From a virus (Duplodnaviria > Heunggongvirae > Uroviricota > Caudoviricetes): DNA of 56,004 bases. Under the pieces are notes generated by a model. That model saw nothing but the letters and a program-made list of their open reading frames with translations, was not told where the DNA came from and made no database searches. This document shows, one piece after another, positions 2,788-45,923 of the stretch. Every line of letters begins with the position of its first letter. The stretch's first letter is position 1. Location: IMG/VR virus record IMGVR_UViG_2744054632_000003; one strand, 5' to 3'. Position numbers and translations under genes: made by a program.

Positions 2788-5168
2788 TAGATTGACTCCC
2801 CCACCTGAGCATCAGTCAATGCCTTGTGCCATATTCTAAAATTCCTGACATGACCAAATAAATGACGTAACCCGGCTGTAGTCTGGCCTCCAATACGGAT
2901 AATTGCGGTGTTCTGAATACAGGACCATGTGGTTTTTGTTTCGCTGGATATATGCCCGTTACTTACTGAGCACGTAGACTGCTCTGACTTTACACGCATC
3001 CCCATAACCATTTTTTCAAGCGATGCGTTTTCGTTTACCCGTCTGTTAGCTCCTCCAATATCGCAATAAGGAAATCCGTCGTAATCTGTTGAACGACCGA
3101 AGCCAAGAATAATAGCCGCTCCGGTTTGATGACCGCCGGTATCAAAAACACGTGGCGCTGCATTTGGCGTTTTATACCAGTTCTTATGTACCTCACAAAG
3201 AACCGTAAAAGGAAGATTATAAAGATTATTCTTAATTGGAACTGTAACTATATCGCTTGCGCGGGTCGCCGCCGTCGCTCCTGATATAATAAAAGATGAT
3301 ACACAAGGCCCATCTTCTACTTGTGGGGTGGCCAGATAAATATAGTCACCAGATACGGTTGCCCCGCTCTGCTTAGGAGAATACTGTATCTGAGAGCCTA
3401 TTTTTAACTCCCCATCAATTGCCTGAATTGTTGCCTCTGCAAAAATCCATCCGGTAGCTTCGTCCTTTCTGACTCTCGCTGTAATTCTTGAGGCAGCACC
3501 GCCTGTCATATTAATTTCAAGCGTTTGTGTATCAATATACGCATCACCAAGAAAAGTTGTTGTGCTACCGTCATATTTATCAAACCGGATACGCAACCTT
3601 ACCTGCAGTTCTGTTTTAAAACGACATGAGGTTGTCACGTGTTTATTATCGCCTGAGACATCAACTGACTTTGTTGCAGCAATTGATGCCATATTAATGG
3701 CTGAGGTTTGCCCAATCAGAGAATCGTTGCAGACAAACTTTCCATAGGTAAAACCAAAATTATCCGTCCCTGTTTCGGGCACATCCATATTTGATGATCG
3801 CCCCCAACTTGCAGGGCTTTCCGAATTGAGCATGTAGTTTGTTCTTTGCCCCTCAATAAGCAGGCCATCACGTTCAAATCGTGGCTCGTCAATGGCAGCC
3901 TCTGTCAGCACACCAGATTTGTTAATATAGGTTGCTTTCGATGCACGTTTAAACTTAACAATCTTGTCGCCAGGCATCGTTATTTCATCGTCACCAATAA
4001 CAATTTTTTTATATGATGGCGAAAAGCCCGTAATCATATCCAGCGAATCGTTAAATGGTATCCACACATCAGGCAGCGGCTGTAAGACATATTTATACGG
4101 CTCTGCTGCCTGACTTGCATACTCTCTGGCTGCGTCTTCACTTGCTTTAGCTGCTGTCTGGCTTGCTGCCGATGCTTTCGCCGAGTTCGCCGCTGCAGTC
4201 TCGCTTGTCTTTGCATTGGTTTCACTGGTTTTTGCTGCTTTTTGACTGTTGGCTGATGCAGTGGCAGAAGCAGCCGCCGCGCTTGCAGAACCAGCTGCAG
4301 CACTCTCGCTTTGGGCTGCTGCATCCTGACTGTTTTTCGCCGCAGTTTCGCTGGCTTTGGCATTCGTTTCGCTGGTCTTCGCTGCCGTCTGGCTGGACTT
4401 TGCGTTAGTTTCACTCGTCTTCGCAGCTTTCTGGCTGTTAGCCGCAGCAGTTGCTGATCCAGCTGCTGAAGTCGCAGAACCGGCTGCCGCGCTCTCGATT
4501 TGGGCTGCTGCAACCTGGCTGTTTTTTGCCGCAGTTTCACTGGCTTTGGCATTCGTTTCGCTGGTTTTCGCTGCCGTCTGGCTGGACTTTGCGTTGGTTT
4601 CGCTCGTCTTTGCGGCTGTCTCGCTATTTTTCGCGTTGGTTTCTGATTTTTTGGCTGCTGTCGCGGAGTTTGCCGATGCAGTCTTTGAGGTCGCTGCCGC
4701 CTGTGCACTATTAGCTGCATTCGTTTCTGAGGTTTTCGCCGCGTTCTTCGATGATGCCGCTGCAGTTTCGGATTTCTTTGCCGCCGCTGCGCTCTGAGAG
4801 GCGGCTTCAGCGTTGCGTGCCGCTTCTTCCACCATTTCCTCAAAACGACGCAATGCCTCCGGCATGACATCATCTTCCGTCATGGCACCGAGAAAATCAT
4901 TCAGCGTACCTGGTCTGGAGCCTTCATAGACGGTAATGGTCCCGGCATGTGAAGGCGGAAAACCTTCAACCAGCAGGGTGACGCTGTACTGGCCATACTC
5001 AACATCCATGCTGTAACGTCCGGCTTCATCCGGATTTTCAGAAGCCACCGTGTTCACCAGTACCGTGGTGCTGTTACGCTTTGCCTTCAGTTGAATAGTG
5101 CAGTTCTGTATTGGTTTTCCCGCACCATCTTTCAGCACACCTGAGATTTTTACTGCTGCCATATCCAC
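2787..5168 (-). CDS. stf: side tail fibre protein Stf with Ala/Ser/Thr-rich repeat shaft and LamG-like C-terminal domain
   Basis: N-terminus AVKISGVLKDGAGKPIQNCTIQLKAKRNSTT...GRYSMDVEYGQYSV matches lambda Stf; repeats AAKTSETNAKSSQT; C-terminus NFRIWHKALTDAQV resembles lectin/LamG domain ends. Confidence 0.85.
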   Translation of the reverse strand: MDMAAVKISGVLKDGAGKPIQNCTIQLKAKRNSTTVLVNTVASENPDEAGRYSMDVEYGQYSVTLLVEGFPPSHAGTITVYEGSRPGTLNDFLGAMTEDDVMPEALRRFEEMVEEAARNAEAASQSAAAAKKSETAAASSKNAAKTSETNAANSAQAAATSKTASANSATAAKKSETNAKNSETAAKTSETNAKSSQTAAKTSETNAKASETAAKNSQVAAAQIESAAAGSATSAAGSATAAANSQKAAKTSETNAKSSQTAAKTSETNAKASETAAKNSQDAAAQSESAAAGSASAAAASATASANSQKAAKTSETNAKTSETAAANSAKASAASQTAAKASEDAAREYASQAAEPYKYVLQPLPDVWIPFNDSLDMITGFSPSYKKIVIGDDEITMPGDKIVKFKRASKATYINKSGVLTEAAIDEPRFERDGLLIEGQRTNYMLNSESPASWGRSSNMDVPETGTDNFGFTYGKFVCNDSLIGQTSAINMASIAATKSVDVSGDNKHVTTSCRFKTELQVRLRIRFDKYDGSTTTFLGDAYIDTQTLEINMTGGAASRITARVRKDEATGWIFAEATIQAIDGELKIGSQIQYSPKQSGATVSGDYIYLATPQVEDGPCVSSFIISGATAATRASDIVTVPIKNNLYNLPFTVLCEVHKNWYKTPNAAPRVFDTGGHQTGAAIILGFGRSTDYDGFPYCDIGGANRRVNENASLEKMVMGMRVKSEQSTCSVSNGHISSETKTTWSCIQNTAIIRIGGQTTAGLRHLFGHVRNFRIWHKALTDAQVGESI
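4140..4800. repeat. imperfect tandem direct repeats (~190 bp unit) inside stf coding sequence
   Basis: Blocks around 4310-4420 and 4500-4615 are near-identical; encode the repeated TSETNAK motif. Confidence 0.6.
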
Positions 5169-5173
5169 TCCAC

Positions 5174-5199
5174 AAAAAAGCCCGCCTGAACCGGCGGGC
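5174..5199 (-). terminator. rho-independent terminator downstream of lom
   Basis: Hairpin GCCCGCC-tgaacc-GGCGGGC followed on the minus strand by TTTTTT. Confidence 0.5.
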
Positions 5200-5226
5200 T
5201 GTCATAACACTGTGTTACCTGGCTAA

Positions 5227-5826
5227 TCAGAACTTATAACCGACACCCACGATGAAACCGTCAGTGCGCCAGTCGCCACTGCCGGAGCCTTCATAAGCAA
5301 TATCAATGGCCACGGATTCGGTCGGGTTAAACTGCACGCCAGCTCCCCACGCCAGAGACGTGTTGCTGTGGCGATCGTCATCACTTCCGGTCAGCACATC
5401 GTGCGTTTTCCCCTTGTTGTCAGTTACGCGGAGATAATCCCCGGAGAACGTCGAAACGCGGCTGTAAGCCACACCTGCCATCGCATAAGCACTGAACCAT
5501 TCATTCACGCGTACAGATGGCCCCGCCATCATGCTGAACCAGCGGTTACGCACTGAATCTTCATGCCAGCGGGTATCGCTGTAATGCGTTCTTTGCTCAT
5601 CTTTGGCATTGGCATAACTGAATGACGTCACCAGCCCCAGCGTGTCCGTAAATTCATAACGGTATTTCACGTTAATGCCCTTCAGGTCATCACTGCCTGG
5701 CATATCAGTATGGGTCTGAAGATACCCGGCGCTTAGTGTGGACTGATGCTCTGCTGCGCTCGCTGGCGTACCAGCGGCAACCAGCCAGACTACTGCGGAC
5801 AGAATAACAGCACATAATTTACGCAT
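5227..5826 (-). CDS. lom: Lom outer membrane protein (Ail/Lom family)
   Basis: Near full-length match to lambda Lom (MRKL...HQSTLSAGYL...GFIVGVGYKF). Confidence 0.95.
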   Translation of the reverse strand: MRKLCAVILSAVVWLVAAGTPASAAEHQSTLSAGYLQTHTDMPGSDDLKGINVKYRYEFTDTLGLVTSFSYANAKDEQRTHYSDTRWHEDSVRNRWFSMMAGPSVRVNEWFSAYAMAGVAYSRVSTFSGDYLRVTDNKGKTHDVLTGSDDDRHSNTSLAWGAGVQFNPTESVAIDIAYEGSGSGDWRTDGFIVGVGYKF

Positions 5827-5850
5827 AATTACCTCTCGCTTTTCTGCAAT

Positions 5851-5874
5851 AAAAAAGGCACCATTTCTGGTGCC
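5851..5874 (-). terminator. rho-independent terminator downstream of J
   Basis: Hairpin GGCACC-atttct-GGTGCC followed on the minus strand by TTTTTT. Confidence 0.5.
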
Positions 5875-5893
5875 CGTATCTGGGTTATAAAAT

Positions 5894-8800
5894 TCAGCTA
5901 ATCGTGATGCCTGCAGTGGCTTTCTTCATCACAACAACCAGCAAATCGCTGATACTTGCTGTGGGATACCAGCCATTTACCAGCCATGCTGACACCGAAA
6001 ACTCCAGTGTCATGTGACCGTGACCGGCAGGCATATCAATAACGCCACTGTAAATCAGCGTATTATCCAGCGCGGTACGGTTATAAATTTCAGCACCGTT
6101 TTTCCGCACTATCAGACGGCATGAGGAGTAAATATCAGTATGCTCTCTCTCATGCTTAGCGCCACTGAATGCCACCGCCGGAATAACAATTTGCCGGTCA
6201 AACGGCTGATCGTCATAAACCCTGACGGTAATGGTCCCTGATGGCCACCGCTCCGGTGCTCGGGAGTCACGGGGGAAAGCTTTGCCCACTGTTTTAACGA
6301 GATCGCCTTCAATCTGGTTCGCGGACAGTTTTCCCAGAACCCGGCAGTTCTCGTTAATCGTGACGTTGTTGAGCGTCCCGGAGTTCGCATTCACGTTACC
6401 GCTGATATCGGCATTTTTCGCCGTCAGCCGCCCGTCCGGTGTCAGGGAAAATGCCGGAGGATTACCGCCGCTGGTAATGGTGGGAGCCGTCAGATATTTC
6501 AGGAACACTTCGTTCATGAATATCTGATTGCCCTGCGCCACAAACATCGGCGTTTCATTCCCGTTTGCCGGGTCAATAAATGCGATACGGTTAGCGGCAA
6601 CCAGGAACTGGCTCAGTTTGCCTTCCTCCGTGTCCTCCATGCTGAGGCCAAGCCCCGCGACATAATGTTTGCCGTCTTTGGTCTGCTCAATTTTGACAGC
6701 CCACATGGCATTCCACTTATCGTTGGCGTCCTTCCACTCTTTCGAAAACTCCTCCAGTCTGCTGGCGTTATCCTCCGTCAGCTCGACTTTTTCCAGCAGC
6801 TCCTTGCCGGGATGGGATTCGGTTATCTTGCCTTTGAAAAAATCCAGGTAACCTTCCGCATCATCGCTCGCCCGACTGACAGCCTCCACGAATGTCGATT
6901 TGCCGACGGTGTTCACACTGCGAACGTAAAAATAATAATCATGGCCCGGTTTGATATTGATACTGGCGGCTATCCAGTACAGCGCCGTGCCAAGATAACG
7001 CGCGCTGGTTTCAACCTGCCTGATATCCGCAATCCGATTTTCCGAGAACCAGAACTCAAACTGTACCGTCGGATCATAAACCGCAAGATGCGGCGTGGCG
7101 GTTATCTGAAAATAGCCCGGCGTCAGCTCAATCCGCGATGGCGCTGCCGGTGCGGCAATCCGGAACGATACCGACGCCGGATCGCCCTGCTGCCCCCACG
7201 CATTTACCGCCCGGACTGTCAGACTGTAATTTCCCAGAGCCAGCTGCCTGAAGCGGTATGTGGTTTCCGTCGTCCGGGCCGTGCTGACCAGCCGCTCACT
7301 GCCGTCATCCGCTGCCACGGTCAGGCGAAGCATAAAGCTCACGCCCTTCACCACCTTCGGCGTATCCCAGCGCGCCAGCACCTGGTATTCCCCGCTGTCT
7401 GCGGTGACTTCGGCGGTCAGGTGCTGCACCGCTGGCGGCGTGACACCATTCACCGTGCCGCTCTGGTCGCCGTCAAAGTGCGCCCCGTTATCCACGATGG
7501 CTTCTTTTTCCGGTACATGCTGCACGGCAGTGATGGCATACGTGCCGTCATCGTTCTCACGGATACTCACACAGCGGAACAGGCGCTGGCGCAGCGTCGG
7601 CAGCTTCAGCCCCCACACGCTGTATCCGGCAACGCCGTCAGGAACCCGACTCACTTTCACCTTCACGCCGTCGGTGACGGACTGAACCTCCACGCTGACC
7701 GGACTCCCCTGCCCGTCAACCAGGCTTATCAGCGTGGTACCGGAGGATGGCAGCGTGATTTCACGGTCGAGCGTCAGCGTCCGGGTCTGGCTGTTCACCG
7801 CCAGCACGCGCCCGCCAATGCTGATCCCCGCATAGTCATCATCGCAGATTTCAATAACATCACCCGGTACATGGCGAAGCCCTTCTGCGCCGACGCTGAA
7901 ATCCACGGTCTGCGTTTCCAGCAGTTCTGTTTTAATCAGCCACAGCCCGGCGCGGTGTGCCTGCCCCCGGCTGGTACAGCCAAAGGCATCCATCTTCGTG
8001 ACGTTACGACCGTAACGGGCAATGGCCTGCGTGTCCTCCACAAGCTCTGTCGCCGTCTCCCAGCCGTTATTCGGGTCAATCCAGTTCACCTCAACGGCAT
8101 TATGACGGTCCTTCAGGGCGCTGAAGCTGTAGCGGAACGGCGCGCCATCATCCGGCATCACCACATTACTACGGTTATAGGTCCACACCTTATCCGATGG
8201 CCGGTCCTGCACGAACGTCAGCGTCTGCCCGTTCCATACCGGCATACAGCGCATCGCCGAGCAGAAATCACTGAGCACATCCCACGCCTTGCGCTGCGTG
8301 GTCAGCCAGGCATTACAGGTGATGCGCGGCTCCGTGCCACCAAAGCCATCCGGCACCGACTGGTCGCAATTCTGGCCGATGACATACAGCGCCCATTTGT
8401 CCACATCCGCCGCACCGAGACGCTTCCCCATGCCGTAGCGCGGATGGGTCAGCATATCCCACAGACACCAGGCCATGTTGTTGCTGTATGCCGGTTTAAA
8501 CGTCCCGTCCCAGATACCGCTGTATTGCCGCGTCTGCGGGTTATAGTTCGACGGCACCTGCAGAATACGCCCGCGCAGATGATAATTACGGCTCACCTGC
8601 TGGCTGCCGAACTGCTCCGAGTCCACCTGCACGCCGACCAGTGCCGTGTTCGGGTAGCACTGTTTCACATCGATGATTTCGGTGTATGACGACCAGAGCG
8701 TTTTGTTCTGCAGCTGGTCTGTGGTGCTGTCCGGCGTCATCCTGCGCATCCGGATATTAAACGGGCGCGGCGGCAGGTTATCCACCACCACTGAGGCCAG

Positions 8801-36669: not shown

Positions 36670-37142
36670 ACCTCAATCTCTCTGACCATTCCGCCCGCTT
36701 CTTTGAATTTTGCAATCAGGCTGTCAGCCTTATGCTCGAACTGACCATAACCAGCGCCCGGAAGTGAAGCCCAGATATTGCTGCAACGGTCGATAGCCTG
36801 ACGAATATCACCGCGATCAATCATCGGTAAAGCGCCACGCTCTTTAATCTGTTGCAGTGCCACAGCGTCCTGGCTTTTCGGAGAGAAGTCTTTCAGGCCA
36901 AGCTGCTTGCGGTAAGCAACCCACCAGCGTGAAAGAAGTTGATAACGGCCTGCAGCTGTTGATTTGAGTTTCGGGTTTAGCGTGACAAGTTTGCGAGGGT
37001 GATCGGAGTAATCAGTGAAGAGTTCTCCACCGACAATAACGTCATAACCGTGGTTACGTGTCGGTTGTCGCCCGTTATCCGTTCCCTCTGACCATGCCAC
37101 CATATCAAGGAAAGCTTTACGCTGGGAATTTAGTACCTGCAT
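36666..37142 (-). CDS. R: endolysin R (lambda-type lytic transglycosylase)
   Basis: [60 protein letters not shown] matches lambda R. Confidence 0.9.
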
Positions 37143-37145
37143 AAA

Positions 37146-37472
37146 TTACTCCTTAGAGCCACCAAACTTGTTACCGATTACTCTCATTGCAGCCCCACGA
37201 ATAGCATCAACACCGATCAGCCCCACCCCACCACCAATGGCAACAGATAGTGATTTAGGCCATCCGACATACTCAAGAGCGGATGCAAAAGTCAGCGTCA
37301 GAGCGCCACAGAGTAGAATTTCGAGTGTTTTTCGCTTCCAGCCGCCACCACCGCCAAAATAGGCAATACGTAAACCAGCCATAACAATCGACATAATCAC
37401 TGCGCCCAGCGGTGTGTCTCCACGCCACCAGCTCTGGACCAACTCCAGCCATGTATTTGGGTTATGAGGCAT
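37146..37472 (-). CDS. putative holin (not lambda S type)
   Basis: 108-aa membrane protein with hydrophobic helices immediately upstream of R; sequence unlike lambda S. Confidence 0.55.
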   Translation of the reverse strand: MPHNPNTWLELVQSWWRGDTPLGAVIMSIVMAGLRIAYFGGGGGWKRKTLEILLCGALTLTFASALEYVGWPKSLSVAIGGGVGLIGVDAIRGAAMRVIGNKFGGSKE

Positions 37473-37620
37473 TTGTAGTTATCTCTCACCTCGCTGATAC
37501 AGCAGGTGCAAATTGAGGAAACATCATGTACCGCAAATCAGAAGCGGAAACGTCAAAGAAGCCGAGTCAATGGATAACTGCGGGATAGGCTAGGACCAAG
37601 GAATCCCCAGACCCAGAAAC

Positions 37621-37646
37621 GACAAAACCCGCTCGATGGCGGGTTT
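37621..37646 (-). terminator. hairpin terminator between moron module and lysis genes
   Basis: ACCCGC-tcgatg-GCGGGT; minus strand is followed by TTTTGTCGTTTC, plus strand by TTT only. Confidence 0.4.
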
Positions 37647-37763
37647 AAGCTGTGTGGCGAAGTGAGCACACTTAACAGATTACGATATTTTTTGCGTACG
37701 CGTTAGTGTTTTGATAGAATTTTCAGCCACATAAAAATTCATTCTTATAATTCGGGATATATA

Positions 37764-38939
37764 ATGGATATAACTTGTTTAGAATGTGGCAATGTTCTTG
37801 ACGACCCAACTGTAGCTTGCGATAAATGCGGTGCCACGCCTCATGTTGTAGTGCTGGGCAAACAATCGTACTTTCCTATTGGTGCTGTAACAGCAAATCT
37901 TGAAAAAAATGATTCAAGAGCATTTGATTATCGATTAGGTGAAGTTTGGGATCTAAAAAATGAAGTCACATCTGAATTCATAACCAGAATTGAGAAAAAA
38001 TTTAGCCGAAAAAACAAATTTCATAACTTCCTAGACTCAGATCACAACCCTTCATCCATTCCTACGATCCTAAAAAAATACATTAATAAGAATAATGAAT
38101 TCATTGATTTATCTAGAGCTATAATAGAGAAGCTTAAACATAATGCTAATAACGAATCGAGAGTTGCCCAACTTCAGGGGGGGAGCGTTGTTTTCATCCA
38201 CTATAAGTCTACCGAACCAGAGGATTTGGGGAAACTTCTAATCGTAATGGTTGATAAACAAAGCGCCTATGACTTTGATTCGGATAAGTTGACCCCAACA
38301 AGATTAAATCCAATTAATACCGATGCCTTACGGCAGGCTGCGATGTTCGATTTAACTTTATTCGAAGCCAGTTATCCAGAAAACAAGGGTGACTCATATG
38401 TACATTTCTTGCAAGGTAAATCTAAAAGCGATTTTTTCAAAGACTCATTAGGTTGCCGACATGATTCGGACAATAAAAGAAGCATTCAGCAATTATTCAG
38501 TGCTATAGATATTTTTGCTAGTAAAAACTCACTCGGTCGTGTACTGCGTGATACTATTGACAATGAAGTTAAATCCTTACTGGAAAAAAAATCAAAAGAT
38601 AAACACGGAAATAAGTCCGTTAAGATAGAGGATATTTCAAAAATAATTGACTCATGCCTGACTGATTCACACAAATGTAAGGGAACGTTTGTCGATTTTG
38701 TTAATCTTAATGGTTTCCAGATTGACCCTCAATTTGAACCAACTCCTAAAGCAGCTGAAAGCGCGCTTACAATTGAAGTGGCAGATAACGACAATAATTT
38801 TAAGTTGAAAATAATGCGTGGAGCTATTGGAGACGAAAAGTCAAATAAGCCTGTAATTCTCACTGACAACAAATGCGAAATTGTGATAAAATTGAGTCAG
38901 GCAAATTATGATGAACTCAAAAGATATAGAGACAGCTAA
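37764..38939 (+). CDS. zinc-ribbon + NdpA/YejK-like (NA37 family) protein, AT-rich moron gene 1
   Basis: N-terminal CLECG...CDKCG ribbon; GGSVVFIHYKS...LLIVMVDKQSAYDFD...YVHFLQGKSKSDFFKDSLGC aligns with recalled YejK GGIVLFCHYRY...LLVAVLNNLSSMRVN...[23 protein letters not shown]. Confidence 0.5.
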   Translation: MDITCLECGNVLDDPTVACDKCGATPHVVVLGKQSYFPIGAVTANLEKNDSRAFDYRLGEVWDLKNEVTSEFITRIEKKFSRKNKFHNFLDSDHNPSSIPTILKKYINKNNEFIDLSRAIIEKLKHNANNESRVAQLQGGSVVFIHYKSTEPEDLGKLLIVMVDKQSAYDFDSDKLTPTRLNPINTDALRQAAMFDLTLFEASYPENKGDSYVHFLQGKSKSDFFKDSLGCRHDSDNKRSIQQLFSAIDIFASKNSLGRVLRDTIDNEVKSLLEKKSKDKHGNKSVKIEDISKIIDSCLTDSHKCKGTFVDFVNLNGFQIDPQFEPTPKAAESALTIEVADNDNNFKLKIMRGAIGDEKSNKPVILTDNKCEIVIKLSQANYDELKRYRDS

Positions 38940-38941
38940 TA

Positions 38942-40156
38942 ATGACAATTGCTGATGACTTATCAAGATTAGCGCAGATTATTAACGGAGCCTCAAGCAG
39001 AGTTGAGGGCTACTACACTGTCATAAGTCTTGAAGAAAGCATTGTTATTGTAAATAGTTCTGAAATAATTAGACTGTTACAATCTATAGGTTATAAAAAG
39101 GCAACAACCTGCATCGAAAATAATGAAATTTGGCTAGATCGCCAAGCTTCATCTTGGGATGATGCTATAATTTATGAGAATGTTGAGTCTTTTTGGTCTA
39201 GAGTAAACACCCAAAACGCTCTTCCGAAAAATTATATCATCGGAACGCCGTTAATACTCCCTACTTCTAAGAATGAAAGCATCGAAAAAATCCATATTTT
39301 CTTTATGTGGAAAGATATCCTTTCATTAATTGCTGATCATCATAACAGTGACTGCTCTGTCTTATTTTTCACCAATGAAGACAAAAGTTATACAGTCGAA
39401 CTCACGCATTTTTTACAATATAGCGAGATTAATCGCTTATCGAACTCGTCTCTTAAATATGAAATTATAAAGGAGCTTCTCGACACAATAAAAATCAATG
39501 ATTTACACAAAAGCGAGCGCAAGCTCGTTATACGCTCAGCCATAAACGAAGTATTTAAAGCAAATGGTACGTTCAATTTCTTTGACTTGCTTAACTCTAC
39601 TGAACTCGTCAGGAAAAAATATGATGAACTATATGAGATTTACACAAAGAGGTTTTCTGTAAATAAAATTCTTAACGAACTCGATGAGAAAAATCTTGAG
39701 TTCACGAGTAAAATTAACGAATTCATATCATCTAATCAGACAAAAGCATTGACTATTCCCGGTGCATTAATAGCAGCTGGTGGCTTAGTGAAGGCTAATG
39801 AAACAACCGAAGCAATATTGATTATCGCAGGACTTTGGATGATAAAAAAAGTCAATTACATTTCTATTGAGATATTCAATGAAACATTCGACAACTTACG
39901 TTCTCGAGTGGAGTCCGCTTTCGATAAGTATTTAAAGTTTGAAGAAAATAAAGAAATCAAAGATAATGCAGATAGTATTAAGAGTAGCATTACAGGTTTG
40001 ATTGATAAAGCTAAAAAAAGGATGAGAACTGTTAAATATCTCGCATCAGCCATGTTTTATGGAGGCCTTATTTACGTTGGATATAAACAGTTCCCAGTCT
40101 TTTTTGAAAAATCGGCAGTAAATCTATTTTATTTTTTATGCCATACTATAAGCTAA
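38942..40156 (+). CDS. membrane protein with C-terminal TM helices, AT-rich moron gene 2
   Basis: 404 aa; starts 3 nt after gene 1 stop; hydrophobic segments ALTIPGALIAAGGLV, AILIIAGLWMI, ASAMFYGGLIYVGY; no recognised domain. Confidence 0.5.
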   Translation: MTIADDLSRLAQIINGASSRVEGYYTVISLEESIVIVNSSEIIRLLQSIGYKKATTCIENNEIWLDRQASSWDDAIIYENVESFWSRVNTQNALPKNYIIGTPLILPTSKNESIEKIHIFFMWKDILSLIADHHNSDCSVLFFTNEDKSYTVELTHFLQYSEINRLSNSSLKYEIIKELLDTIKINDLHKSERKLVIRSAINEVFKANGTFNFFDLLNSTELVRKKYDELYEIYTKRFSVNKILNELDEKNLEFTSKINEFISSNQTKALTIPGALIAAGGLVKANETTEAILIIAGLWMIKKVNYISIEIFNETFDNLRSRVESAFDKYLKFEENKEIKDNADSIKSSITGLIDKAKKRMRTVKYLASAMFYGGLIYVGYKQFPVFFEKSAVNLFYFLCHTIS

Positions 40157-40492
40157 CATTGCTAAACAGCCGTCAACAAACCCCATTGCAGTTTGCAGTT
40201 CCTTCCTAATTGTGCCATCAGAGCATTTTCTCTTCTTCGCAATAGTGCGTAATGAGATACCGATAACAAAGTGGGCGATGATGAGCTCATATTCCTCTGG
40301 TTTATACCTTCTCAACCGAGCCACACAACTGTCTATCATGATGCCTTCGTCATCATCACACTGAATCCGTGACTTTTTGCCATGAGGTAAAAGTCCCTTG
40401 AAACCAGCCGCTATCGGCTGCCAGTCCACTCCGCTATTGTCTGAAGCAGCCCAAGCTCCCCAACGATCCATTACTTCATACATATCACGCAT
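40136..40492 (-). CDS. quuD: late antiterminator Q (QuuD-like)
   Basis: MRDMYEVMDRWGAWAASDNSGVDWQPIAAGFKGLLP resembles DLP12 QuuD; start taken at MRDMYEV. Confidence 0.75.
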   Translation of the reverse strand: MRDMYEVMDRWGAWAASDNSGVDWQPIAAGFKGLLPHGKKSRIQCDDDEGIMIDSCVARLRRYKPEEYELIIAHFVIGISLRTIAKKRKCSDGTIRKELQTAMGFVDGCLAMLAYSMA

Positions 40493-40713
40493 CAACTTTC
40501 TCCACAAAATCAGGCCAGAACGCCAATTACAAGCAAAAATCAACAAAACAGTATTAGTTGATTGTTATCTCTGACTTCATACTCCTGCTCCTGTCAGGGT
40601 TTTGGCGTAATTCTTCAGTATTCGGTAATCGGTCAAAACAGAACCGGGGAAACGATATAAGCGCAGACGCCCCCAGCGGTGGCGAAGAAATTCTGCCATA
40701 TTAAACTCAAACA

Positions 40714-42177: not shown

Positions 42178-43122
42178 TTATGGTTTATTTTCTAGCTCTG
42201 ATTTTTTGAAAGCTTCTATCAGACGATTAGCATCTTCTGTACCACCAGGAAGCACGTTTGATTTTTTAAGAATATACGGTGGGAACTTTGTGGTTAAATA
42301 TTCATGCTTAAACCATCTACGAAACTCTGACAATGCAGAATCAGGATAGGCATTAATGATCTGAGGATTGGAACTTGCCTGAAGAAAATCTTCAGGGTAA
42401 TAATGCTCACAGTCTACTCTTTCTCCAAATTCTGTTGCTAACCCCTTTGCTTTCCAGTGACGCGCCCAGCAAGAACCAACACTGCCATCAGGTACGGTAT
42501 GCTGATTAATCGCTAATCCAGCATTGATGAGATCTACCATCATACCTGCAATTTCATTAAATATAATGAAATACCCATCAGGTATGGTTCCCTTATCTTT
42601 TAATAAAGATACTCTGTCATGGTAATGCCTCCACGGGTCCTCCGGTTGATATTTTAGCGCCTCGTATATAAATGTCTTGAGGCCTTTTTTAGCAAGCTCT
42701 CTGTAAGATCTAATTGCAGTCTCACTTTCTGCTTGTTTTGCTTCAAAGGCATAGTATTCAAGTATAGCCATGCATACAACATCTGGATAAGCATGGTACT
42801 CAACACCATTTCGAATTATTGGTATATAAAGTTTTTCATCTGTAAAACCTTCATTAAGAAGATATGTACCAATAAAAGTCATTCTTCCTTTTTTGAAAAT
42901 ACCGTTCTCAACAGATTGAGCCCACTCATCGGTAATTTCCTTGATTCGCAAACGCTGAACACCACAAACATTTGCCAACCCATTCTGAGTAAGGTACGGA
43001 ATTCCGTTATCGAGTACCCCCATTTCTATACCGTTAATGACAGCCTCTTGCTTAACATCTAAGTCTAAAGGTATGGATCTGAGGGAGGTAGTTCTCTGTT
43101 GTGCCATTTTTGATCCTATCAA
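42178..43122 (-). CDS. AT-rich moron protein with possible N-terminal KilA-N-like DNA-binding domain (BstA-like defence candidate)
   Basis: 314-aa ORF with AT-rich codons; N-terminal segment INGIEMGVLDNGIPYLTQNGLANVCGV resembles KilA-N/Bro-N pattern; no catalytic motif recognised. Confidence 0.4.
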   Translation of the reverse strand: MIGSKMAQQRTTSLRSIPLDLDVKQEAVINGIEMGVLDNGIPYLTQNGLANVCGVQRLRIKEITDEWAQSVENGIFKKGRMTFIGTYLLNEGFTDEKLYIPIIRNGVEYHAYPDVVCMAILEYYAFEAKQAESETAIRSYRELAKKGLKTFIYEALKYQPEDPWRHYHDRVSLLKDKGTIPDGYFIIFNEIAGMMVDLINAGLAINQHTVPDGSVGSCWARHWKAKGLATEFGERVDCEHYYPEDFLQASSNPQIINAYPDSALSEFRRWFKHEYLTTKFPPYILKKSNVLPGGTEDANRLIEAFKKSELENKP

Positions 43123-43311: not shown

Positions 43312-43629
43312 CTAACAGATTTGACGCAAATACGGCAATACTCGACTCCACTTATCATCCTGCCACGGCTGAAGTTTTACATGTGCCGTTTCTCGGACGA
43401 GGATTGCTCGCGCTCTGTTGAGTATCTGGGGATATTCTTGCTCGATGGAAGTGAAGTGACCAGCTTCACCATGCTCCGCATCCTGAAGAAGATGAGTAAC
43501 GTTCTGGTAGGCAATTAACATCACATTCCCTGCTCGCCATAACCAGGCGAGTGTGCAAAGTTCGTTATCAGTGAATTGTTTTGTGATTGGGGATTGTTGA
43601 ACTGCTAGAACGAGAACGCCAGCATCCAT
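43312..43629 (-). CDS. hypothetical protein (105 aa)
   Basis: ORF with no recognised family. Confidence 0.35.
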   Translation of the reverse strand: MDAGVLVLAVQQSPITKQFTDNELCTLAWLWRAGNVMLIAYQNVTHLLQDAEHGEAGHFTSIEQEYPQILNRARAILVRETAHVKLQPWQDDKWSRVLPYLRQIC

Positions 43630-43740
43630 TGGCAGTCCCTATAGTAAAACCATAGCTCAGGACGCTTCGTTCAGGATAGATAATTTTATTGTACTTACCT
43701 AACTTTCTTACTATAGCACGGTTGAAAAAGTGATTATTAC

Positions 43741-45267
43741 TCAAAAATAAACCTCACCATCAACCATATATTTGAGAGTACTTATCGCCTGCTGGGCGGA
43801 TATTGTTTTCATTAAAGGATAGTGTTTAAAAACAATGCCATTCATAAAATAGATATCACAGGTTTTATTATCTGTATTGATTATGATTTTTTCGAATGTT
43901 TTATAGGCAAGTGTACGACATAGCTCTCGCCCATTTTTACTGGTTAAGTCAATAGCATGAAAATCACCAAGTGAGCTCACCGCTTTACTCTTCAAAGTTT
44001 TTAATGATACAGAAGCCCTTCGTAATTCCTTATCTAATACTCTGATTTTTTCTGCTATAGCGGTAACTTCAGGCGCAACAGATAATGCAGCAATTAAATT
44101 ATTAATTTTCATCTGGAGCTCAATAATTTTCAACTCTAAAGTTTCATTAGCATCTTTCTTGTTTTCAACTGGTTGGATTTTACTACAATTAAAAAGCAAC
44201 TCATTAATGATATTATAATCAACCAAATCTCTCTTTATTGATGGCCTGTCACATCGATGCAGTCTTCTCATCGGACAAACATAATAGCCATGCAAACTTC
44301 CAGATACCGCATGAACAATCATGGTATTACCACAAGCCTCGCACTTCATAACTGTTCGAAGTAGATTTATCAACATAGGATTTTTGCTACTATTGCTAAT
44401 ACCAAAAGGTGCCAACCGAATTTCCTGCACAGCGTAAAACAAATCATCTGATATGACTCTGGGATAATAGCCAGCGATTTCACTTATTCCTTTACCTCTT
44501 GCACGATATGAAGGTACGCATATACCTATCAGAGCTTTATTCGCTAATAATTTTTCAATTACAGAAGGTCCCCATGCACTTTCTTTTCCTGAGAAATTCT
44601 TTACAGCATGATCATTTAAATACTTGGCTATTGCATTCAATGAGCGCCTTTCCATCCTGAGTTTAAAAATTAGCTCAATAGTTTTCACCCTGTCGGGGTC
44701 TGGAACAAAAGCCGTTCTTTTGTCATCTAAGGAGAGCCATCTCGGACAAGACGCCGTCATAATCGTGCCTGACTCCAGTGCATCCTGCCGTTTTTTCTTC
44801 CATGATAATTTAACCCGACTTGACTTTATCTCGCTTTCTTCATTTGCCCTTTGTGCTATAAGTATGGCTTTTATTAATGAATATGGATCATTCAAAGAGT
44901 CAATATTATAGACTGTATTATCGCAAAGAGTTATAACATCAATACCGTGATTCAAAATCAATTTCAGACGCTCAATCGCTTCACCGACTTTTTCTCTTGA
45001 AAGTCTGTCCAGACTTTCAACTAACAATGTAGTTCCTGGCAATATATAACCATGCTCTATAGCATCTAAAAATTCCGAAAAAGCTCCTGATTGTGCATGC
45101 TTTCCTTTGAATGCACTTAATCCTAAATCTTCATATGTTATGGTATCAAGATAATAATCACTATTTACCTTTAACCATTCAGCAATAAGTCTTCTCTGTC
45201 GGTTTAATGAGTCGCCAGACATCTGACCTGGTGATGAAAATCGCATATATGCTATGGCTTTTTTCAT
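43741..45267 (-). CDS. ybcK: large serine recombinase (YbcK-like)
   Basis: N-terminal resolvase motif AIAYMRFSSPGQ...GDSLNRQ with catalytic Ser context, plus recombinase domain and Cys-rich zinc ribbon; 508 aa as in DLP12 YbcK. Confidence 0.8.
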   Translation of the reverse strand: MKKAIAYMRFSSPGQMSGDSLNRQRRLIAEWLKVNSDYYLDTITYEDLGLSAFKGKHAQSGAFSEFLDAIEHGYILPGTTLLVESLDRLSREKVGEAIERLKLILNHGIDVITLCDNTVYNIDSLNDPYSLIKAILIAQRANEESEIKSSRVKLSWKKKRQDALESGTIMTASCPRWLSLDDKRTAFVPDPDRVKTIELIFKLRMERRSLNAIAKYLNDHAVKNFSGKESAWGPSVIEKLLANKALIGICVPSYRARGKGISEIAGYYPRVISDDLFYAVQEIRLAPFGISNSSKNPMLINLLRTVMKCEACGNTMIVHAVSGSLHGYYVCPMRRLHRCDRPSIKRDLVDYNIINELLFNCSKIQPVENKKDANETLELKIIELQMKINNLIAALSVAPEVTAIAEKIRVLDKELRRASVSLKTLKSKAVSSLGDFHAIDLTSKNGRELCRTLAYKTFEKIIINTDNKTCDIYFMNGIVFKHYPLMKTISAQQAISTLKYMVDGEVYF

Positions 45268-45523
45268 GGTGACACCTGCTAACGTATGCTTTTATAAACC
45301 TTAGTGGTGAGATATAATTTTTGTTTAATTTTTATTTAAAAAGACAATTAAGGTCACATTATCTTGAATATACAACAATAATCGTATTGCAATTTTCTTA
45401 CGCCATAATCTTGAAAGCACAAAAGAATACATAAAAAAATAAAGACATTAACAAAAAGCATAAAACGAGGCTCATATAAATATAAGAGCCTCCATATTTT
45501 AGTCGTTTAGAAACAAATTATTT

Positions 45524-45856
45524 TTAATGTGGTGTGCTTCGTGACAATAAATTAATAACCAACACACCGGCACAAATCAACATCATGCCTATAATGGCTG
45601 GCAGGTCCAGCCGTTGGCCGAAAAATCCCCATGACAGTAAGCTAATCAGGACAATACCGACTCCTGACCAGATAGCATAAGCAATCCCTGTAGGAATATA
45701 AGCCAGCGTCTGAGCTAATAACCAGAATGATGCACAATAACAAATAATTGTACCAACAGATGGCCATAACCGTGTAAAACCTTCTGAAAACTTCATTAAG
45801 GTTGTACCAATGACCTCTGCAAGTATTGCACCACCAAGATAAATATAAGGGTTCAT
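45524..45856 (-). CDS. emrE: small multidrug resistance efflux transporter EmrE
   Basis: MNPYIYLGGAILAEVIGTTLMKFSEGFTRLWPSVGTIICYCASFWLLAQTLAYIPTGIAYAIWSGVGIVLISLLSWGFFGQRLDLPAIIGMML matches EmrE. Confidence 0.95.
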   Translation of the reverse strand: MNPYIYLGGAILAEVIGTTLMKFSEGFTRLWPSVGTIICYCASFWLLAQTLAYIPTGIAYAIWSGVGIVLISLLSWGFFGQRLDLPAIIGMMLICAGVLVINLLSRSTPH

Positions 45857-45923
45857 AGCATATTCTTTCCTGTTCAAACTGGAGAGAATTGTACTACAGT
45901 TTGAAATCAACTCACCTGTTTCA

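Follow-up and report, generated by a model that had tools for sequence, protein, structure and literature searches.

The closest described relatives of the locus considered here are two anti-phage systems, DS-1 and PANGU, in which a protein resembling the nucleoid-associated protein (NAP) YejK is encoded together with a partner. The locus is a two-gene module on the plus strand, positions 37764-40156, of a 56,004-nucleotide stretch of DNA from a Caudoviricetes virus (IMG/VR record IMGVR_UViG_2744054632_000003); this entire stretch is called the window below. Judged by its sequence, the module is DS-1 itself, an already known anti-phage pair present as an exact copy, and it is cargo of a DLP12-like lambdoid prophage. 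A preliminary description of the window knew of no described system with such a composition, which is contradicted by the publication of DS-1, by the existence of NCBIfam models for it, and by the architecture of type II PANGU. The pair as such has no discovery value, since it has been published, validated, and covered by NCBI annotation models.

DS-1 (working identifier D390) was reported in the DefensePredictor study (DeWeirdt, Mahoney & Laub, bioRxiv 2025-01-08; Science 2026; PMC13092281). Its source locus is NZ_RRVY01000002.1:220602-222994 (PMC13092281 Table S6), where the first protein, WP_000355468.1, is labelled 'nucleoid-associated protein', and DefensePredictor assigned log-odds of defence of 8.6 to gene 1 and 12.7 to gene 2. 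The pair was active when assayed in E. coli MG1655 from a low-copy plasmid that included its native upstream region (PMC13092281). Expressed as -log(EOP), where EOP is the efficiency of plating, the effects were 7.6 for Bas1, which gave no plaques, 2.7 for Bas26, 1.7 for both Bas3 and T3, 1.0 for T5, 0.9 for T7, and about 0 (-0.15) for SECphi27, with small plaques recorded for Bas26, Bas3, T3, T7, and SECphi27 (PMC13092281 Table S7). The remaining phages of the 24-phage panel, T4 and lambda among them, have no DS-1 entry. Thus, DS-1 protects E. coli from T1-like (Bas1, Bas3), T5-like (T5, Bas26), and T7-like (T3, T7) phages. On the nature of DS-1, the main text of the paper says only that a 'YejK nucleoid-associated domain' is newly tied to defence (PMC13092281).

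PANGU systems combine a YejK-like NAP with an effector, and the type II version consists of Pag2A and Pag2B (Li et al., bioRxiv 10.64898/2026.04.06.716658). Both genes of the E. coli representative, PANGU-Ecu, are needed for defence and neither is toxic alone, and growth curves at a multiplicity of infection (MOI) of 10 exhibit the arrest pattern of abortive infection. When T4 infects, Pag2A fused to green fluorescent protein departs from the nucleoid. The acidic domain of Pag2B, in isolated form, has a dissociation constant (KD) of 19 nM for Pag2A, and T4 escapes PANGU-Ecu through mutations in denA, which encodes EndoII. In the authors' proposal, degradation of the chromosome by the phage frees the clamp, which then binds an effector domain that mimics DNA (Li et al., bioRxiv 10.64898/2026.04.06.716658). 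Neither DS-1 nor DefensePredictor is cited in the preprint. YejK itself forms a dimeric, asymmetric clamp with a 30 Å basic pore, and its R173A/R176A/K177A mutant loses DNA binding (PMC11229321).

The module in the window comprises two open reading frames with ATG starts, gene 1 (391 amino acids; 37764-38939) and gene 2 (404 amino acids; 38942-40156). The TAA stop codon of gene 1 (37764-38939; stop at 38937-38939) is separated from the ATG of gene 2 by a 2-nucleotide gap (...TAA TA ATG...). Both genes are on the plus strand, opposite to the antiterminator gene Q and the holin gene, and the GC content across 37800-40200 is 0.33-0.37, compared to about 0.50 for the lysis genes and 0.47-0.53 beyond Q. 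The stop codon of gene 2 (40154-40156) lies past the 3' end of Q at 40136, and the two genes therefore converge in a 21-nucleotide overlap (40136-40156) that has no terminator hairpin between them. The preliminary description had correctly recognized the AT-rich operon, its orientation, and this overlap. A consensus scan and direct reading of the sequence located candidate promoters for the module at 37711-37751 (plus strand), namely a TTGATA and an AAAAAT hexamer with 16-nucleotide spacing (37711-37738) and a perfect TATAAT (37746-37751).

The identification as DS-1 is supported by several comparisons. NCBIfam release 20 includes equivalog models for precisely this pair, and both proteins score above the cut-offs: gene 1 reaches 451.4 bits against NF053868 (DS1_1_antiphage; cut-off 330, E=2.1e-135), and gene 2 reaches 375.2 bits against NF053869 (DS1_2_antiphage; cut-off 315, E=2.8e-112). 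The gene 1 product is identical to WP_000355468.1 at 391 of 391 residues, using the sequence from Table S8 of DeWeirdt et al., and the gene 2 product is identical to WP_000150292.1 across the 399 residues printed in that table, both proteins being 404 amino acids long. The unit spans 2393 bp in the window as well as in the DS-1 entry of Table S6, and the current RefSeq product name for gene 2 is 'anti-phage protein'. The anti-phage role that the preliminary description suspected for this sensor-like and effector-like pair is borne out by the defence that the identical pair confers on E. coli (PMC13092281). No family in PADLOC v2.0 (2023) matches gene 1 or gene 2 at E<=1, because that library is older than DS-1. 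An Rfam scan of 37000-40700 yielded nothing meaningful, and a tRNA search of the window yielded none.

The product of gene 1, called DS-1A (37764-38939, plus strand), is the proposed sensor, and NCBIfam, Pfam, AlphaFold2 (AF2), and Foldseek analyses all bear on its nature as a DNA-clamp paralogue with the YejK/NA37 fold. The Pfam NA37 profile aligns with residues 64-376 (E=1.2e-23), and a phmmer comparison with the sequence of YejK in the Protein Data Bank (PDB entry 9BE2) gives E=1.2e-9. The AF2 model has a mean predicted local distance difference test score (pLDDT) of 85.6 and a predicted template modelling score (pTM) of 0.80, and Foldseek gives a single significant fold match in the PDB, E. 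coli YejK 9BE2 (E=5e-15, probability 1.00). These matches uphold the NdpA/YejK-like core that the preliminary description had assigned. DS-1A scores 81.4 bits against the YejK equivalog model NF001557, well below its cut-off of 341, and therefore is an NA37-fold paralogue rather than YejK itself. DS-1A shares the NA37 fold with E. coli YejK/NdpA (9BE2; PMC11229321) and also has a basic residue in the segment that corresponds to the R173/R176/K177 DNA-binding cluster of YejK. In DS-1A this segment is G218-K-S-K-S-D-F-F-K226 (GKSKSDFFK), and among 47 relatives position 219 is K or R in 45 and K226 is likewise retained in 45. The two proteins differ in that DS-1A is only about 18% identical to YejK, has an extra four-cysteine (Cys4) ribbon at its N terminus, is a prophage gene product, and has DS-1B as its constant partner.

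The N-terminal motif, CxxC-x10-CxxC (C5, C8, C19, and C22; 37776-37829, plus strand), is zinc-ribbon-like. The cysteines called in the preliminary description are indeed present, but the Pfam zinc-ribbon profiles Zn_Ribbon_1, DZR, and Zn_ribbon_3 score only 11-13 bits against cut-offs of 25-27 (E 0.07-0.28) and are therefore sub-threshold. The AF2 model is also of low confidence in this region (pLDDT only 60-66), and an HHpred analysis by DeWeirdt et al. assigned the N terminus as a NinF-like zinc beta-ribbon with a probability of 86% (PMC13092281). All four cysteines occur in 21 of the 47 family representatives, which belong to Enterobacterales and a few other groups, and in none from the Pseudomonas branch. 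On this distribution, the ribbon is best described as an accessory feature of the DS-1A family.

DS-1B (404 amino acids; 38942-40156, plus strand), the proposed effector, matches NCBIfam NF053869 and PHROG 5023 (E=2e-158), and its AF2 model has a pLDDT of 85. Neither sequence nor fold comparisons connect it to a characterized relative: a family profile found no match among PDB sequences, and a fold search returned only generic helical bundles. From the charge and the predicted secondary structure, an acidic N-terminal part can be delimited at residues 1-220 (38942-39601, plus strand), consisting of an alpha/beta domain (residues 1-165) followed by helices. Its acidity is judged by net charge, and the values are -9 for residues 1-165 and -8 for residues 1-220. 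All 42 aligned homologues have a net negative charge in the N-terminal region (-1 to -19), and the C-terminal half is approximately neutral to positive. Very long helices are predicted for residues 220-268, 288-331, and 337-383. The most conserved segment in the family alignment, residues 221-285 (39602-39796, plus strand), encompasses a long helix and the first hydrophobic helix; the mean frequency of the top residue is 0.78 there and 0.32-0.52 elsewhere, and the segment contains the motif KKYDELYExYTKRFSVNKxLNELDEKxLEFTSKINExISSxQTKALTIPGALIA.

Hydrophobic stretches conserved in the DS-1B family lie at residues ~267-308 and ~363-386, the latter followed by a last helix rich in aromatic residues. 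The first stretch is a predicted hydrophobic helical hairpin (39740-39865, plus strand) formed by helices 271-284 and 288-331, where the pLDDT dips to 63-69, and the family-mean Kyte-Doolittle value exceeds 1.0 over residues 267-294 in 15-residue windows. The second comprises the C-terminal hydrophobic and aromatic helices 337-383 and 385-403 (residues ~363-404; 40028-40153, plus strand). A crude Hessa-scale sum per 17-mer is +4.9 to +5.1 for these stretches, and the same sum for the neighboring holin is 4.4 for its weakest transmembrane (TM) segment and 1.3-2.2 for TM1 and TM2. The DS-1B helices are thus only marginally hydrophobic, near the weakest TM segment of the holin and weaker than its TM1 and TM2. 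The C-terminal TM helices of the preliminary description therefore hold up as conserved hydrophobic helices, but not as strongly hydrophobic ones, and the marginal values suggest that any membrane insertion would be conditional rather than constitutive.

Of 5426 complete E. coli genomes, 106 carry the module at >=99% identity, with the antiterminator Q gene beside every copy, and the exact DS-1 proteins occur on at least 1000 contigs, with Klebsiella and Salmonella members in the 90%-identity clusters. An exhaustive profile search at E<=1e-3 recovered 780 cluster representatives resembling DS-1B, most of them 380-450 amino acids long, and 69 remained at E<=1e-30. An NA37 gene lies directly upstream of the DS-1B-like partner in each of the 11 informative contexts outside the window, down to a profile E of ~1e-17; a further contig did not extend far enough to show the arrangement and was left out. 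Co-occurrence elsewhere had been proposed as a check in the preliminary description, and across the contexts compared the pairing is obligate. Among the more distant members are three found in metagenome assemblies, with profile E-values of 8e-15 to 2.5e-17, and each has an NA37 gene immediately upstream.

These contexts are varied, and those in the named genera that follow pass the DS-1 models or come close to them. DS-1 pairs in Yersinia, Cronobacter, and Klebsiella are located in lambdoid prophages, and DS-1-like pairs are found in Pseudoteredinibacter beside an integrase, AbiEii, and AAA_21, in Pectobacterium beside a D5-type primase, and in Serratia (locus L004) 250 bp from a BstA gene (L004:7423-8334). 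The P. aeruginosa pair (5001-7422 in loci L007-L009) directly borders a Pf-type filamentous prophage (Zot, DUF2523); it lacks the zinc ribbon, has an hhalign probability of 100%, and both of its proteins exceed the NCBIfam cut-offs. Overall, the defence neighbors of DS-1-like pairs include AbiEii, AAA_21, BstA, and nSTAND genes. The 11 contexts also include a more divergent pair from E. coli 2c3 (L010:1246-3448; NZ_CM176618.1), consisting of WP_000127202.1 and WP_053264141.1. Its NAP (344 amino acids) is 25% identical to DS-1A, is nearer to YejK, and has no zinc ribbon, and its partner (392 amino acids) is a remote DS-1B homologue (hhalign probability 96%, E=2.5e-9) that falls below the DS1_2 cut-off.

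Two further observations concern the neighborhood and integrity of DS-1. The window carries its own gene for BstA, a prophage abortive-infection protein (42178-43107, minus strand; PADLOC PDLC02356, E=3.6e-121), 2 kb from DS-1; given the Serratia arrangement, the two systems therefore co-occur in unrelated elements. In the clinical isolate E. coli AF5 (L013:9265-11214; NZ_OZ547033.1), an IS1 insertion splits DS-1 gene 1, and the system therefore presumably is inactivated.

Type II PANGU offers the most useful hints regarding how DS-1 might work, with the understanding that the two are likened by described architecture. Both are bicistronic, with a YejK-like NAP gene followed by a partner gene, and the 2-nucleotide gap of DS-1 is within the <40 bp criterion used for PANGU. 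DS-1B, with its net-negative N-terminal region and marginally hydrophobic C-terminal helices, may correspond to Pag2B, which has an acidic DNA-mimicking (DMK) domain at the N terminus and a TM domain at the C terminus, and both systems come from E. coli and act against phages. Among the groups blocked by DS-1, phages of the T7-like group degrade host DNA. The same is true of T1 and T5, according to the Discussion of the PANGU preprint (bioRxiv 10.64898/2026.04.06.716658). Taken together, the NA37 fold, the 2-nucleotide gap, the acidic N terminus, the hydrophobic helices, and the host-DNA-degrading targets point to the PANGU model as the best-supported mechanism for DS-1.

Under the PANGU model, DS-1A would dimerize through its YejK fold as a clamp on chromosomal DNA and thereby be held apart from DS-1B. 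Degradation of the host chromosome by an infecting phage would free DS-1A, which could then bind the acidic N-terminal domain of DS-1B. DS-1B would thus be switched on, and its two marginally hydrophobic C-terminal hairpins might insert into or perturb the inner membrane, such that the infected cell would be killed or arrested ahead of phage progeny. That DS-1 is a prophage-borne anti-phage system operating by this PANGU-type sequence of release, partner binding, and abortive infection is given a probability of roughly 0.6.

Several points weigh against this proposal. The DefensePredictor paper reports no mechanism, single-gene deletions, or abortive-infection test for DS-1 (PMC13092281), and the PANGU authors leave unexplained how Pag2A activates Pag2B (bioRxiv 10.64898/2026.04.06.716658). 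Membrane insertion by DS-1B is a putative step, given its marginal hydrophobicity and the generic helical bundles returned by fold searches. The zinc ribbon has no role in the release model and is absent from half of the family. Furthermore, the phage ranges disagree: PANGU-Ecu blocks T4 and not T1 or T5, whereas DS-1 acts on T5, Bas26, and the T1-like Bas1 and has no T4 entry. This mismatch weakens the idea that DS-1 is the same variant as PANGU-Ecu, but not that it is the same kind of system, and the two were assayed in different expression systems. E. coli has at least two divergent pairs of a NAP and a partner at the same prophage site, DS-1 and the 2c3 pair, and PANGU-Ecu may be a variant of the 2c3 type rather than of the DS-1 type.

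The same mismatch is a reason to consider that DS-1 defends by a different trigger, in which DS-1A directly recognizes a phage component, possibly through its zinc ribbon, and the resulting complex activates DS-1B. The trigger might be phage DNA, either as it enters or as it replicates, or else an acidic, DNA-mimicking phage protein, and if a clamp can bind an acidic domain that mimics DNA, it could just as well bind DNA mimics made by phages. EndoII of T4 triggers PANGU, yet no effect on T4 is listed for DS-1, and activity is strong against Bas1 and T5-like phages where PANGU-Ecu fails; in addition, a Cys4 ribbon that is extra in the Enterobacterales branch and absent in the Pseudomonas branch suggests an added input. 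Direct sensing is nevertheless considered fairly unlikely, because the susceptible T1-, T5-, and T7-like phages do degrade host DNA as the release model would have it, the differences in range may stem from expression (native promoter on a low-copy plasmid versus induction with isopropyl beta-D-thiogalactopyranoside), and there is no direct evidence of any phage ligand.

Other explanations part more widely from the PANGU model. The near-total block of Bas1 (7.6 logs without plaques), the hydrophobic helices of DS-1B, and the position of the module as constitutively expressed prophage cargo near Bor/Iss and the lysis genes would all be compatible with non-abortive action at the envelope, where membrane-bound DS-1B and DNA-binding DS-1A block genome entry or early steps and the cell survives. 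This seems improbable when type II PANGU, with the same architecture, arrests growth at an MOI of 10 and is escaped through an intracellular nuclease, when reduced plaque size for several phages suggests an effect after entry, and when the pair is also found outside prophages in defence islands. A role that is not primarily defensive, with DS-1A as a nucleoid protein encoded by a mobile genetic element to regulate or silence the prophage (compare NdpA2 of the integrative and conjugative element PAPI-1) and DS-1B as an accessory membrane protein, is very hard to credit. The module does abut Q and the late control region, and NA37 paralogues on mobile elements can be regulators (PMC8565334). This regulatory role is already largely refuted by the published plaque assays, in which a plasmid with only the identical gene pair lowers the plating of seven phages on MG1655 (PMC13092281), and the pair is found in non-lambdoid contexts too.

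The genomic position of DS-1 is the other subject for which the window is instructive. The module is bordered on one side by Q (40136-40492, minus strand), a member of the Q21 family PF06530 (Pfam Phage_antitermQ, E=2.7e-47; family as in PMC9388147), and on the other by a holin gene (37146-37472, minus strand) that opens the lysis cassette. The holin belongs to the lambda family by the RefSeq name 'phage holin, lambda family' given to its counterpart in AF5, whose module region is 100% identical to the window, and thus both flanking genes had been named properly in the preliminary description. Past the holin are genes for a GH24 lysozyme, Rz/Rz1, and a Bor/Iss lipoprotein. Q also has a weak Pfam match to region 4 of extracytoplasmic function (ECF) sigma factors (E=6e-4), in agreement with the published likeness of the Q21 fold to sigma region 4, and with the alternative TTG start further upstream (40546) it would be 18 residues longer.

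The stretch separating Q from the holin is a hotspot for cargo, which is variable and is present in all loci examined. The window has DS-1 in this position and E. coli 2c3 has its second NAP pair. Genes 50 and 49 of Shigella phage SfII (L012:3286-4900) match the PADLOC candidate PDC-M53A/B (E=2e-32 and 3e-54), and PA-2 and 'Lambda_4C10' carry an opposite-strand porin gene (lc/OmpD). Opposite-strand genes with no family matches occupy the slot in E. coli Sanji (L001:2753-4083) and in SfIV (gp49/gp48; L002:1835-3178) and are candidate uncharacterized defence cargo. Orthologues of DS-1 occur in the same slot in Yersinia (38% identity; L015/L016), Cronobacter (39%; L021), and Klebsiella (85%; L022), on the strand opposite to Q and abutting or overlapping it, and the adjoining holins are from different Pfam families. 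The 3' overlap with Q measures 30-37 nucleotides in Klebsiella and in one of the Yersinia gene calls. A GC-rich hairpin flanked by A- and T-runs lies between the convergent Q and cargo genes in Sanji (L001 ~4084-4104) and 2c3 (L010 ~3449-3472) and looks like a bidirectional terminator; the window has no such hairpin.

On the holin side of the cargo, an alignment of eight loci and an information-content profile of 85 unique copies delimit a conserved Q-linked cis element of 72 nucleotides (37645-37716, minus strand). The element includes an invariant palindrome GCGTACGC (37701-37694), a TATnGT overlapping a TAnnnT (37687-37677), and a -10-like TGnTAAGnGT (37677-37668), and two -10-like motifs are counted in it overall. 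It is followed directly by an intrinsic terminator hairpin and T-run resembling tR' (37625-37646, minus strand), which was identified by a terminator scan and is conserved in Sanji, SfIV, 2c3, and SfII. The element is kept in all eight aligned loci irrespective of the cargo or the holin family, and nucleotide identity between the window and Klebsiella jumps to 92% exactly at 37641-37700, with the holin side unalignable. A scan of IMG/VR with the 14-mer ACGCGTACGCAAAA found 120 loci, 97 of which have the extended element and 6 of those 97 have DS-1. Of the 71 loci that extend far enough upstream, 70 have a homologue of Q on the strand of the element and 605-3745 bp upstream of it (median 1667 bp); in these IMG/VR loci the homologue is never adjacent to the element and never elsewhere.

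Members of the Q21 family bind a repeated Q-binding element (QBE) beside a sigma-dependent pause element (PMC9388147; bioRxiv 651190). By analogy, the conserved element probably constitutes the Q-loading site, the late promoter, and the sigma-dependent pause element, with tR' following, although the profile allows no unambiguous assignment of -35 and -10 hexamers. No conserved block was found directly after Q among three loci with different cargo, and two of these have a terminator-like hairpin instead. A doubt that the S-proximal block holds pR', raised by its homology to DNA just upstream of S in 'lambda-like' phages, was dropped since those phages are of the DLP12/PA-2 type with cargo in the same slot.

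If the element is the late promoter, then DS-1 lies between Q and that promoter and would not be crossed by late transcription. The preliminary description, in which late transcription has to cross the module in antisense, is therefore probably mistaken on this point, because the Q-linked element and the terminator lie between the module and the holin. The candidate DS-1 promoters are back-to-back with the inferred late control region, and this divergence from the late promoter suggests that DS-1 is expressed in the lysogen. Early rightward transcription that runs past Q could still be antisense to gene 2, which is conceivable because the overlapping gene ends in the window have no terminator between them. 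In four genera, DS-1 is convergent with the 3' end of Q, abutting or overlapping it, and back-to-back with the inferred late promoter. This placement may be functional, such that read-through past Q on induction collides with or is antisense to DS-1B and switches the defence off, allowing the prophage to complete its lytic cycle; separately, the Cys4 ribbon might serve as a second input that explains the different ranges of DS-1 and PANGU-Ecu. Both ideas are speculative and rather doubtful.

Farther along the window, from BstA toward the replication genes, the order is a P22AR_C fragment (43312-43629), a ybcK-like large serine recombinase (43741-45267), and the small multidrug resistance (SMR) efflux pump EmrE (45524-45910). 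This gene order (43312-45910, minus strand) matches that of DLP12, and the portion at 43600-44400 is AT-rich as well (31-36% GC).

When set against known systems, the DLP12/PA-2-type phages with their lc/nmpC porin have the same slot, the same opposite orientation of the cargo, and the same conserved holin-adjacent block, and they differ in that the cargo is a porin rather than a defence pair. The stx site of Stx phages, to which the preliminary description had likened this position, similarly carries accessory cargo between Q and S. The likeness is correct as to the location between Q and the holin, but stx is co-oriented with the late promoter and transcribed from it, whereas DS-1, encoded by the other strand, uses a promoter of its own and is located upstream of the putative pR'/tR'. 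The slot between a Q21-family Q and the Q-linked element, which has yielded DS-1, a second NAP pair, PDC-M53, porins, and unknown genes so far, is well suited to the search for new defence genes. In comparison with DS-1 (D390) as published, the proteins, the 2393-bp two-gene unit, and the species are the same and there is no difference at the sequence level. The genomic context, the conservation of the pair, and the anatomy of the partner protein are not covered in that paper; new here are the conservation of the pair, its recurrence between Q and the lysis genes in E. coli, Klebsiella, Yersinia, and Cronobacter, and the location of this slot upstream of the Q-linked element. With regard to type II PANGU, the description of Pag2A makes no mention of a zinc ribbon, whereas DS-1A has a Cys4 motif. 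If sequences confirm the link between the two systems, DS-1 would gain a mechanism, and PANGU would gain a validated member with a different phage range.

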